Of a stretch of 18,895 bases of DNA, positions 16,388 through 18,895 are shown in pieces. The notes under the pieces are model-generated. The model had not been told where the DNA came from, made no database searches, and saw only the letters and a program-made list of their open reading frames with translations. The translations under genes and the position numbers were made by a program. Numbering within the stretch: the first letter of the stretch is position 1; each line of letters begins with the position of its first letter. This stretch comes from Armatimonadota bacterium (GTDB lineage Bacteria > Armatimonadota > SYMT01), in assembly GCA_046292385.1 (NCBI GenBank), contig JBKBRF010000076.1:1-18895 (forward strand), written 5' to 3'.

Positions 16388-17821
16388 ATGAACCGGATCG
16401 GGAACCTGCTTGTCGTTGTCGGTTTGGCGGCCGGTCTGGTGCCCTGCTCCGTGGTGGCGGCGGCACCGCGCCCCGCCGCGGAGCCGCGCGCGGAAACCCC
16501 CGCCAGGGTCACGGAGCGCGTCGAGGCCTTGCTGCAGAACGTCCTCAAGACGCGGCGGATTCCGGGGGTAGCCGCAGCGGTGATCCAGGGCGGCCGCCCG
16601 GTCTTCGTGAAGGGCTACGGCTACGCCGACGTGGAGCACAAGGTGCCGGTCAGCGAGCTCACGGTGTTCCAGCTCGCGTCGGTCACCAAGCAGTTCACCG
16701 CCGCCGGGGTGATGCTGCTGGTGCAGGACGGCAAGCTCGGGCTCGACGACCCGATCACCCGCCATCTGCCGGACCTCCCGGAGGCGTGGAAAGAGGTCAC
16801 CGTCCGCCACCTCCTCACCCATACCTCCGGCATCACCAGCTACACCAGCCTGCCGCTCGACTTCCGTAAAGATTACTCCCGCACCGAGCTGCTCGGGCTG
16901 GTCCGCGACCTCCCGCTGCAGTGGAAGGCGGGCGAGAGGTGGGCCTACAACAACAGCGGCTATTACCTGCTCGGGATGCTGATCGAGAAGCTCTCCGGCG
17001 TCTCCTACGGCGAGTTCCTGGAGCAGCGGATCTTCGGAAAGCTCGGGTTGAGCACGACGCGGGTGAACGACCTCCGCGCCGTGATCCCGAACCGGGCCGA
17101 GGGCTACACCCTCTCCGGGCGTGAGCTGCGTCGCGGCGAGTACGTCAGCCCCACCCAACCGTACGCCGCCGGTGCGCTCGTCTCCAGCATCCACGACATG
17201 GTCAGGTGGGCCACGACGGTCCGGGCGCGCGAGATCCTGCGCAAGGAGTCGTGGGCCGAGATCTTCCGTCCTTACCGGCTCAACGACGGCAAGCCGACCA
17301 CCTACGGCTTCGGTTGGAGCGTAGACCAGCACCAGGGCCACCCGCGCTACCACCACGGCGGCGGCATCCCGGGGTTCAGCACCAACATTGCCTACTACCC
17401 GGATGACGACCTCGCCGTCATCGTCCTCTGCAACCTCGACGGCGGGCACGCGGGATTCCTGACGAACCAGATCGCGGCCGAGTACGTGACCGACCTCGTT
17501 CCGAAGCCGATCGAAGACCCCGACCCGGCCACCACCGCCCGGCTGCGGAAGATCGTCGAGGGCATCGCCGCCGGTACCGCCGACGAAGCCGAGTTCGCGC
17601 CCGAAACGCGCAAGGCGCTCTTTCCGGACCGCATCCGTGAAGGACAGCGGCACCTGGGCGAGCTGGGCAAGCTGGGAGAATTCCGCCTGGTGGCCCATCA
17701 GAAGACGGACGACCACCGGCAACTCACCTACCGCGCGCTCTTCGGAGACACCCCGATGCGGGTGAGCCTCGCACTCGACGCAGACGGCAAGATCGCTGGG
17801 ATCGGCTTTTCTCCCGAGTAA
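16388..17821 (+). CDS. Secreted serine hydrolase, beta-lactamase/PBP (class C-like) family, 477 aa
   Basis: SxxK (ASVTK), LLTHTSG, YxN (YNN) and HGG motifs; signal-peptide-like N-terminus; GGAGG RBS before ATG 16388. Confidence 0.92.
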   Translation: MNRIGNLLVVVGLAAGLVPCSVVAAAPRPAAEPRAETPARVTERVEALLQNVLKTRRIPGVAAAVIQGGRPVFVKGYGYADVEHKVPVSELTVFQLASVTKQFTAAGVMLLVQDGKLGLDDPITRHLPDLPEAWKEVTVRHLLTHTSGITSYTSLPLDFRKDYSRTELLGLVRDLPLQWKAGERWAYNNSGYYLLGMLIEKLSGVSYGEFLEQRIFGKLGLSTTRVNDLRAVIPNRAEGYTLSGRELRRGEYVSPTQPYAAGALVSSIHDMVRWATTVRAREILRKESWAEIFRPYRLNDGKPTTYGFGWSVDQHQGHPRYHHGGGIPGFSTNIAYYPDDDLAVIVLCNLDGGHAGFLTNQIAAEYVTDLVPKPIEDPDPATTARLRKIVEGIAAGTADEAEFAPETRKALFPDRIREGQRHLGELGKLGEFRLVAHQKTDDHRQLTYRALFGDTPMRVSLALDADGKIAGIGFSPE

Positions 17822-17848
17822 GCCCGAAGCGCCTCGAGGGCTGGGCTG

Positions 17849-18136
17849 CTACGAGCGAGCTACCAGGTCGGGTAGCTCCACCTCCATCTCGTCCTCGTAG
17901 CACCAGCCCCACTCCTCGCCGGGCTCGAACGACTGAATGATCGGGTGTCCCGTCGCGTGGAAGTGTTTCGTCGCGTGCCGGTTGGGTGAGGAATCGCAGC
18001 ACCCGACGTGTCCACACGTGCGGCAGAGGCGGAGATGCACCCATCGCCCGCCGATCCGAAGGCAGTCCTCGCAGCCGCTGCTACTGGGTGTCACGTCCTG
18101 AACCTGGTCCAGATGCGTGCAGGTCTCGCTATCCAT
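17849..18136 (-). CDS. Stand-alone UBP-type zinc finger protein (zf-UBP), 95 aa
   Basis: CTH...CEDC...WVHLRLCRTCGHVGCCDSSPNRHATKHF...HP...WGWCY pattern; AGGAGG RBS. Confidence 0.92.
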   Translation of the reverse strand: MDSETCTHLDQVQDVTPSSSGCEDCLRIGGRWVHLRLCRTCGHVGCCDSSPNRHATKHFHATGHPIIQSFEPGEEWGWCYEDEMEVELPDLVARS

Positions 18137-18776
18137 CCTGGGTCCTCCTGTCAGCCTGGAGCGGTACTACAGGGTACCGCGCGCGCCAGGCGTCTAACCC
18201 ACCGGATAGGGCGCTGGCGGTGAAGCCCAGCTTCTGAAGCTGACGTGCCGCACGGGCACTGCTGCCTTCGCGCGGTCACGTACAGTAAGCGACTACCTCC
18301 CGCTCCCGCGGCTGTGCGGCCGCCCACCGCGTGAGCTCGTCCGGGTAGACGTGGATACTGCCGGGGATCCGGTCTCCGTAGTATCCCGACCGGCTCCGGA
18401 CGTCGAGCACCACCGGCGGCGGAGTTGGTCCTGCCATCCGCGCGTACAGCTCCTCGGCGCTGATCCGCCGAGCTCCACCAGAGTCCGGTTGGAACAGGCC
18501 CGCCGGCGTGCTCTCCCGCTCTTCCGGGAGCGTCGCGCGGCTGGCACGTTCCGCATACCAGCTCGAGAGCGGCGTGGCGCTTACGCCGTGCAGCACGATA
18601 GAGACGATCACGACCCCGCCGGTAATCGCCATCAGTCGCTCGGCGTCTGCGACGTGCGCGTGGACCGCGAGCAGCACCAGAAGGAGCGAGTTCAATCCGC
18701 GAGGCCCGAACCACCCGATGAAGACCCGGGCGTCGCGGCTTAGTGCGGCCCGCCGAAGCACCAGTGAGATCACCAG
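18129..18776 (-). pseudogene. 3' part of a CPA1/NhaP-type cation:proton antiporter fused to a rhodanese domain with in-frame TGA (probable selenocysteine, YCTUPRE); 5' part missing, probably interrupted by an IS
   Basis: FIGWFGPRGLNSLLL and VSIVLHGVSA are CPA1 C-terminal helices. The rhodanese (VVLDVRS...IPGSIHV...VVAYCT) continues past the TGA at 18276-18278 as PREGSSARAARQLQKLGFTASALSGGLDAW..YPV to TAG at 18129-18131. Confidence 0.8.
18230..18275 (-). promoter_or_regulatory. Candidate bacterial SECIS element
   Basis: Hairpin GUGCC-CGUGC-GGCAC (18245-18259). The apical loop begins 21 nt after the UGA with G at loop position 2; a lower GAAG/CUUC pairing is possible. Confidence 0.6.
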
Positions 18777-18895
18777 CCCAAGTTCCGCAGTTGGTGGTGG
18801 CAGATTACTGCCACCACCTTTTTTCGTGCCTGACTGGCGGTTGCGCTACGAGGTCTCCACCGAGTTACAGGCATGGCTGCCGCCGCATTGCCCGT
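18777..18895. mobile_element. Probable end of an insertion sequence (terminus CCCAAGTTCCGCAG, recalled as IS1634-family-like), truncated by the window edge
   Basis: Antiporter-like sequence stops abruptly here and a strong terminator lies immediately inside. An open frame from ATG 18873 runs off the edge. No transposase or second IR is visible. Confidence 0.45.
18793..18824 (+). terminator. Intrinsic terminator
   Basis: Perfect 11-bp stem GGTGGTGGCAG/CTGCCACCACC with loop ATTA, followed by TTTTTT. Confidence 0.8.

Follow-up and report, generated by a model that had tools for sequence, protein, structure and literature searches.

A predicted selenocysteine codon in a family of NhaP-type antiporter–rhodanese fusion genes truncated by annotation

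The locus considered here, the 3′ part of an ion transporter gene at one end of a bacterial contig, raises the question whether the UGA codon at which gene callers end the gene is a stop codon at all. The contig (JBKBRF010000076.1 of assembly GCA_046292385.1, here G000:C76) comes from an Armatimonadota bacterium of the GTDB lineage SYMT01 and was analysed over its full 18,895 nucleotides; this whole stretch, which is the entire contig, is referred to as the window. An initial annotation, made from the letters of the window and its open reading frames, had proposed that the gene encodes an antiporter-rhodanese fusion with an in-frame UGA standing for selenocysteine (Sec). Our analysis makes it very probable that the UGA is a Sec codon shared by a family of cation:proton antiporters of the CPA1 group that end in a rhodanese domain, and it shows that the gene is split by an insertion sequence (IS) in this particular genome. 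For the rhodanese tail we favour, with much less confidence, a role as a redox or persulfide switch.

A UGA codon inside a rhodanese fold

Under translation table 11, the open reading frame (ORF) 18773..18276 on the minus strand ends with the residues REVVAYCT and a TGA at 18278..18276. When this TGA is read through, the frame continues with Sec (U) and 48 further residues (PREGSSARAARQLQKLGFTASALSGGLDAWRARYPVVPLQADRRTQDG) up to a TAG at 18131..18129, which overlaps the ATG (18136..18134) of the following gene, encoding a zf-UBP protein, as ATGGATAG. Because the read-through frame runs to the zf-UBP start, the apparent 139-bp gap between the two genes is coding. The read-through product displays the active-site motif Y-C-x-U (AYCTU, in the wider motif Y-C-T-U-P-x-E) and is matched by the Pfam Rhodanese profile (PF00581) with an E-value of 1.5e-12 and 48.3 bits, against a cut-off of 22.2. 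The match covers residues 108-201 and thus spans the TGA at residue 169. The coordinates and strings given in the initial annotation were all reproduced, and so were the two structural claims built on them, namely, that the TGA lies within a rhodanese fold and that a 48-residue extension closes the gap before the zf-UBP gene.

The membrane domain that precedes the rhodanese is represented in the window by its last part. The Na_H_Exchanger profile (PF00999) is matched there from position 305 to position 374 of 375, with 23.7 bits, which is below the cut-off of 26.2; the domain is complete once the 5′ part of the gene, located on contig C9 of the same genome, or the orthologue is included. The full-length orthologue, found in genome G005, is 65% identical and has TGA at the same column (YCTUPHETTSARVA). 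For its truncated ORF of 482 aa (P0001) the PF00999 match is precomputed. A profile of the family matches the archaeal antiporters PaNhaP (5e-13) and MjNhaP1 (3e-9), and the alignments bring the TD, E..ND and GPRG motifs into register. These two proteins were also the best Foldseek hits of the AlphaFold2 (AF2) model of the G005 orthologue (template modelling (TM) scores of 0.74-0.76), followed by SLC9C1, SOS1, NHE1, NapA and KefC. The model has a mean predicted local distance difference test (pLDDT) score of 82.7. It places U between a strand (residues 477-480) and a helix (residues 484-498), and a low-confidence linker (residues 405-417) connects the last helix of the membrane domain to the rhodanese domain. 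The best NCBIfam models for the membrane domain are those of PRK05326 K+/H+ antiporters (NF003714-NF003716), with 148.9, 140.2 and 94.8 bits, the first spanning residues 7-392; with cut-offs of 309-471 bits, the protein is not a member of that family. We conclude that the membrane domain belongs to the NhaP-type antiporters of the CPA1 group and that a presumably cytoplasmic rhodanese domain is appended to it.

In phmmer alignments the U column falls on the catalytic Cys both in the rhodanese 6mxv and in GlpE (1gmx), and the C-T preceding U represents a two-residue insertion relative to GlpE. The Cys located two residues before the U column is present in 40 of 40 Sec forms and in 94 of 94 Cys forms. 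The best NCBIfam match of the domain is rhodanese_LYCAU (NF041203), with 67.4 bits (75.4 for the G005 orthologue) against a cut-off of 115, so that the domain is to be regarded as a relative of this stand-alone family and not as its member. The second-best match, the rhodanese-type chromate-resistance protein ChrE, reaches 43 bits, likewise under its cut-off. In a scan of the orthologue against NCBIfam release 20.0 there was no model dedicated to the antiporter-rhodanese fusion.

The codon, its hairpin and the Sec machinery in homologues

In a read-through search of 40 relatives, seven rhodanese loci, among them the G005 orthologue, showed TGA at the column of the Sec codon. The protein collection contains 1873 proteins matching at E ≤ 0.001, and the best 120 clusters of these include 25 that end exactly at YCT or YCS (~482-487 aa), 94 that read YCxC (~524-545 aa) and one fragment. 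At the DNA level, the 46 fusion loci of species-representative genomes comprise 35 with TGA (one of them, L046, in a genome flagged as unpublished), four with TGC, one with TGG and six that could not be assessed owing to a missing rhodanese part, a frameshift or a contig end. Once loci from a metagenome scan seeded with Cys forms were added, the 80 readable homologous loci had TGA in 72 cases, TGC or TGT in seven and TGG in one. The loci come from Chloroflexota, Actinomycetota, Acidobacteriota and soil metagenomes, and named carriers include members of Thermomicrobiales, Ktedonobacterales, Dehalococcoidia, Caldilineaceae, Rubrobacteraceae, Thermoleophilaceae, Acidimicrobiia and Thermoanaerobaculia; a cultured carrier is Thermalbibacter longus CFH 74404 (locus L066). 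In an even sample of 401 genomes from the window's own phylum, 15 genomes show a match at E ≤ 1e-40, and the TGA form is found in G000, G005, G223 and G360. G223 has two TGA-form copies (L204 and L205), the second of which reaches the contig end right after YCSUR.

The sequence past the UGA is conserved at the protein level, in that 43 read-through sequences keep the rhodanese pattern. For the window and G005, the proportions of synonymous (pS) and non-synonymous (pN) differences over the 35 codons after the UGA are 0.62 and 0.25, respectively. Both comparisons suggest that the segment past the UGA is under purifying selection. Since synonymous sites are near saturation in most pairs, only this downstream figure was used; an estimate for the 40 codons upstream of the UGA was discarded, as the ungapped register does not hold there. 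The single locus with TGG (Trp) at the Sec column (YCTWHRE), at ~2940-2960 of L080 from a Dehalococcoidia metagenome-assembled genome (MAG), has a hairpin degraded to three of the five pairs and sits on a long tree branch, although its genome has selA. The rhodanese domain of L080 may have been inactivated or repurposed.

A short hairpin follows the UGA. Its consensus in 40 aligned TGA forms is GCGCC-CGUGY-GGCGC, with compensatory changes in three of the five pairs. All five pairs are formed in 66 of the 69 distinct TGA-form sequences and four pairs in the remaining three, whereas among 15 non-TGA forms five pairs are found in one sequence, four in three, three in five, two in three, one in two and none in one. 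The comparison indicates that the hairpin is specific to TGA forms. It lies within the codons for S-A-R-V/A-A and thereby accounts for Ala at position +7 in 38 of 40 Sec forms as compared to 24 of 94 Cys forms, in which the most common residue at this position is Gly (48 of 94). In the model of the bacterial Sec insertion sequence (bSECIS), as set out in the relevant passages of PMC13188914, the stem has 4-16 bp, the loop has 3-9 nt with a G in its first two positions, the distance from UGA to the loop is 16-37 nt and the minimum free energy is ≤ −7.5 kcal/mol. The dimensions of the hairpin fit the model as given there: 5 bp, a 5-nt loop C-G-K-G-Y and, in the window, 21 nt from the UGA to the apical loop. 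At loop positions 2-3 the TGA forms have G, then U or G. Two orthologues have hairpin energies of −7.6 and −7.9 kcal/mol. Support for the hairpin comes from comparison across sequences and not from folding of single ones.

The same type of hairpin was observed outside the fusion genes. Three stand-alone rhodaneses of the Y-U-x-U type have two in-frame TGAs one codon apart (L023 in G008, L024 in G036 and L032 in G009). L023 and L024 have the hairpin GCGCC-CGUGC-GGCGC, as in the fusion genes, and L032 has GCUGCC-GGUCA-GGCAGC; selA is present in all three genomes.

The genome of the window encodes a tRNA-Sec with the anticodon TCA (ARAGORN, 66.6 bits) as well as selA (577.9 bits), selB (367.5 bits) and selD (362.3 bits). 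The genes for tRNA-Sec, SelD and SelA lie side by side at G000:C11:87438-90122, and selD has one in-frame TGA, so that SelD is itself a selenoprotein in G000. Across species representatives, selA scores above the cut-off in 32 of the 35 TGA-form genomes and in two of the four Cys-form genomes. The corresponding numbers in the phylum sample, where all these genomes are ≥95% complete, are three of three and one of seven. In one and the same genus, selA is present in the TGA carrier but absent from three carriers of the Cys form. With G000 included, the totals amount to 36 of 39 TGA-form as against 3 of 11 Cys-form genomes. G000 also encodes a second Sec-rhodanese at G000:C37:22824-23108 (+), a stand-alone domain whose TGA occupies the canonical catalytic position (VVVYUGFGIKSAQA); it is of the UxxG type, which is already catalogued.

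A quick maximum-likelihood tree was built from 88 C-terminal regions, of which 73 have Sec, 14 Cys and 1 Trp, with the Sec/Cys column masked. Cys forms are dispersed within Sec clades, and the tree needs at least 11 state changes, at least seven of which are forced by well-supported branches. Sec and Cys forms thus appear to have interconverted repeatedly; since the root was not inferred and the sample is biased, we claim no direction of change. This interleaving, which tracks selA, provides an example of repeated exchange accompanied by gain or loss of the Sec trait.

The initial annotation had aligned the UGA to a Cys of related rhodanese domains (YCxCPxE) and taken this as the mark of Sec, and had named four computational ways to probe the idea, all of which came out in its favour: TGA prevails over TGC/TGT in the sampled homologues at the column that is catalytic Cys in 6mxv and 1gmx, a complete set of sel genes is present, a conserved hairpin of the bSECIS type with compensatory changes follows the UGA of TGA forms, and pN is well below pS past the UGA. 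It had also envisaged a genome devoid of Sec machinery with a TGA unique to this copy. What was found instead is a genome with the machinery and a TGA that recurs in most homologues.

Interruption by a mobile element and features of the window

The initial annotation had suspected that the gene is disrupted by an IS, and the contig ends bear this out. Sequence derived from the gene stops at base 18776. The stretch 18777-18895 recurs at 11 other contig ends (identical over 115-120 nt) and represents one end of a multi-copy element, the opposite end of which, G000:C9:1-120, is likewise common to 11 other contig ends. Both ends have the perfect 16-nt terminal inverted repeat CCCAAGTTCCGCAGTT and are flanked by the 4-bp direct repeat CCAG. 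The 5′ part of the gene lies on G000:C9:1075..121, and its N-terminal 319 residues (G000:C9:1075..119) are free of stops and 82% identical to the G005 orthologue. With the duplication counted once, the two halves (955 and 641 nt) add up to 1596 nt, or 532 codons in frame, and neither half carries other lesions. The gene is therefore split at codon ~319 by a multi-copy insertion element but is otherwise intact, and it is probably not expressed as one protein in this genome.

Sequencing runs provide further detail. In run X1, possibly the source sample, the unique part is covered at a depth of 60 and the repeat at 700-2200, and a 1499-nt contig of depth 700 begins exactly at 18777, which puts the length of the element at ~1.5 kb. 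A 196-nt contig of run X2, a soil metagenome from another study, has no mismatch over 18671-18777 and continues as C9:126-155; it is an uninterrupted allele, that is, an empty site. The existence of this allele implies that the insertion took place recently and is peculiar to this population. The TGA is crossed without any difference by contigs of X2 and X3, whose two studies are distinct from that of X1, so that it is no error and is not confined to this copy. Among 20 relatives, the only match to the element repeat is one of 22 nt in G003, around which there is no transposase. As the interior of the element lies outside this assembly, we do not name its IS family. On the plus strand, the element end also contains a hairpin resembling a terminator at ~18794-18825 (GGTGGTGGCAG-ATTA-CTGCCACCACC with a T run behind it).

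Table 1. Coordinates of the features at the antiporter-rhodanese locus of the window
Feature	Position	Strand	Remark
3′ part of the NhaP-type antiporter-rhodanese gene	18129..18776	-	~codons 320-532, including stop TAG 18131..18129
Last transmembrane helices of the antiporter domain, including the conserved FGPRG motif	18561..18770	-	PF00999 and orthologue matches
Rhodanese homology domain	18180..18461	-	PF00581
Invariant Cys codon TGT, C of the CxU motif	18282..18284	-	two residues before Sec
UGA, predicted to be read as selenocysteine	18276..18278	-	catalytic-Cys position, rhodanese loop
SECIS-like hairpin GUGCC-CGUGC-GGCAC	18245..18259, loop 18254..18250	-	stem starts 17 nt past UGA
zf-UBP gene (95 aa), ATG overlaps the antiporter stop	17849..18136	-	PF02148, 1e-14
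CCAG target-site duplication	18773..18776	.	second copy G000:C9:121-124
End of the multi-copy mobile element	18777..18895	.	16-nt terminal inverted repeat CCCAAGTTCCGCAGTT at 18777-18792

The surroundings of the fusion gene vary. Taking the longest flanking ORF on each side at 47 loci, we obtained 87 ORFs that belong to many unrelated Pfam families, with no recurring neighbourhood; the only neighbours seen repeatedly are a second Na_H_Exchanger gene, which directly adjoins the fusion gene at three loci (L057, L070 and L078), and a cupredoxin (two loci). A zf-UBP homologue adjoins the fusion gene in merely two of 97 other loci examined with flanks of 600-1500 nt, in both cases upstream (L060, a Rubrobacteraceae genome, and L128, a metagenome contig), and was rejected as a functional partner on this ground. 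In the RNA library run X18 there is a 269-nt contig that covers only the zf-UBP region (17900-18148), with 10 differences.

Competing explanations and the role of the rhodanese tail

Selenocysteine in rhodaneses is not new in itself. In their passages on rhodaneses, PMC13188914 and PMC9312934 list CxU rhodanese-related sulfurtransferases as predicted selenoproteins; the former treats the CxU type as 'form 3', NF041203, and credits it to Zhang and Gladyshev 2005, and the UxU form is reported in PMC1976440. These accounts, as far as their text goes, agree with the statement of the initial annotation that Sec-containing rhodanese-like proteins had been described. The tail of the fusion shares with the NF041203 CxU/UxU type the rhodanese fold, the Y-C-x-U motif and Sec at the catalytic position, and stand-alone relatives of both kinds carry the same post-UGA hairpin. 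However, NF041203 proteins are stand-alone and ~126 aa long, whereas the domain discussed here is the C-terminal tail of a membrane antiporter of ~530 aa. Transporters also figure among the predicted selenoproteins given in the text of PMC13188914 (cation-transporting ATPase E1-E2, YeeE/YedE, the SO_0444 efflux transporter and parts of the Sao ABC system); as in the fusion, membrane transport is combined with Sec, but folds and motifs differ. The words 'antiporter', 'exchanger', 'NhaP' and 'PF00999' do not occur in the text of PMC13188914, nor does 'antiporter' in the text of PMC9312934, PMC5029168 or PMC1976440, the supplements of these papers lying outside the scope of the comparison. Full-text literature searches turned up no paper on an antiporter-rhodanese selenoprotein, although supplementary tables of the large selenoproteome surveys may list such genes under 'rhodanese'. 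The Sec-rhodanese type is known, and what appears to be new is its combination with an NhaP-type antiporter, an architecture that is widespread and truncated by annotation.

What the tail does can be approached through the transporters that the fusion resembles. With PaNhaP (4cz8, 4cza) and MjNhaP1 (4czb) it shares the transmembrane fold and the aligned TD, E..ND and GPRG motifs; yet the solved archaeal NhaPs stop after the membrane domain (~420 aa) and have neither rhodanese nor Sec. In KefC, SLC9C1 and SOS1, as in the fusion, a cytoplasmic domain is appended to the transporter fold after the last helix, and it exerts control, by glutathione in KefC, by cyclic nucleotides in SLC9C1 and by auto-inhibition in SOS1. 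KefC is gated by glutathione and its adducts. The regulatory domains of these proteins have KTN/RCK, CNBD or other folds, unlike the rhodanese of the fusion, and we know of no rhodanese and no Sec in them. For a switch based on thiol or selenol chemistry, KefC may be regarded as the nearest functional analogy.

If the protein is a selenoprotein, we give a little under even chances to its Cys-x-Sec (or Cys-x-Cys) pair being a redox or persulfide switch through which antiport is tuned, much as glutathione gates KefC. This role is favoured because the tail is situated where other CPA antiporters carry regulatory domains and because the second invariant Cys, two residues before the catalytic position, would be superfluous for carrying a persulfide. 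The principal competitor, which we consider possible but doubtful, is a selenoprotein whose rhodanese is catalytic, a membrane-tethered S/Se transferase or a reductase of an oxyanion (arsenate, selenite or chromate, for instance). In its favour, Sec occupies the position that is catalytic in sulfurtransferases, as does, in another way, ChrE being the second-best NCBIfam match, albeit under its cut-off, and the stand-alone CxU/UxU rhodaneses with the same hairpin indicate that the domain can work without a transporter. On the other hand, apart from the superfluous Cys, the cation-binding motifs of Na+/H+ antiporters are kept, leaving no obvious S/Se substrate to be transported, and no sulfur, selenium or arsenic genes recur among the 87 flanking ORFs of the 47 loci.

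Explanations that do without Sec fare far worse. That the UGA is a real stop, giving a ~482-aa antiporter with a rhodanese stub and, downstream, for example a separate peptide or RNA element responsible for the conservation, is very improbable. Gene callers predict precisely this product (the 25 truncated entries among the best 120 clusters), and partial termination at UGA is expected when selenium is scarce, but such a product would lack half of the rhodanese fold (in the model, the helix following the active site and the last strands and helices), the residues after the UGA keep the rhodanese pattern under protein-level constraint, the column is that of the catalytic Cys, and TGA forms track selA. 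It is still harder to credit that the TGA arose by nonsense mutation in a pseudogene which was disrupted by an IS and is decaying, with the downstream rhodanese as an uneroded relic. Although the gene is indeed split by an element in this genome, and TGA is one base away from the TGC/TGT of existing Cys forms, the same column has TGA in 72 of 80 readable loci from three phyla, identical sequence including the TGA is present in contigs of two other studies, one of them without the IS, the gene halves have no other lesions, pN is below pS downstream, the hairpin is peculiar to TGA forms, and these co-occur with selA. Near-cognate read-through that inserts Cys, Trp or Gly is about as implausible: one homologue (L080) does have Trp at the column, but a full Sec system, a SECIS-type hairpin at the expected distance, the association of TGA forms with selA and the classic Sec/Cys pairing at a catalytic Cys all argue otherwise. 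Taken together, these results can hardly be reconciled with a nonsense mutation, a genuine stop or recoding to some other residue.

Several observations weigh against a Sec codon and a regulatory tail as proposed here. The Sec residue of the antiporter-rhodanese protein is predicted from sequence comparison, and the interruption of the gene in G000 means that the locus says nothing about its expression in this genome. Three MAGs of 2.1-2.6 Mb, for which no completeness is given, have the TGA form but show no selA. Homologues were sampled in order of their similarity to the queries, so that their ratio of TGA to Cys forms is not an unbiased frequency, and among the distant homologues in the 401 sampled genomes of the phylum Cys forms (seven genomes) outnumber TGA forms (four). 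The window hairpin is weak by itself (−6.4 kcal/mol for its 15 nt) and reaches −10.1 kcal/mol in a 29-nt context, that is, its energy falls within the bSECIS range only with context. Single-sequence folds are no better than those of shuffled sequences (z from −1.5 to −1.8), the 60 nt after the UGA, folded singly, give a different and non-significant structure (z = −1.51), and an Rfam scan of 17800-18895 at E ≤ 10 returned no match. Finally, no conserved gene neighbourhood backs any function, including the regulatory role that we infer for the tail.

In the Sec reading, which we prefer, the UGA would be decoded as Sec by the SelA/SelB/SelC/SelD system of the organism, directed by the short hairpin with its 5-bp G+C stem and C-G-K-G-Y loop 17 nt downstream of the UGA. 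The invariant Cys-x-Sec pair might then serve as a redox or persulfide switch that is set by formation and opening of a selenenylsulfide, and through it the rhodanese tail would adjust antiport to thiol, sulfide or selenium conditions in the cell. More specifically, and only tentatively, the switch could sense oxidants, sulfide/persulfide or selenide, the resulting selenenylsulfide opening or closing the NhaP-type transporter. As the Sec codon is itself part of the sensor, the selenium supply would also determine whether a full-length regulated transporter or a tail-less one is produced; termination at the UGA under selenium shortage might, as a speculation, provide a second layer of control.

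For annotation, the consequence is that dozens of species from three or more phyla have this gene entered as a 'cation:proton antiporter' of ~482 aa, which ends in the middle of a rhodanese fold, and since the scan of NCBIfam release 20.0 returned no dedicated model, automatic pipelines will keep truncating it. The family also amounts to a natural experiment on the constraint that a SECIS element imposes on coding sequence, S-A-R-V/A-A being fixed in Sec forms and drifting in Cys forms. With the fusion, a secondary ion transporter joins the list of predicted selenoproteins and offers a concrete, testable link between the selenium/thiol redox state and Na+(K+)/H+ homeostasis. If the tail indeed acts as a switch, the fusion would represent the first case of selenium chemistry controlling an ion transporter, and a case that is widespread in soil and hot-spring bacteria.

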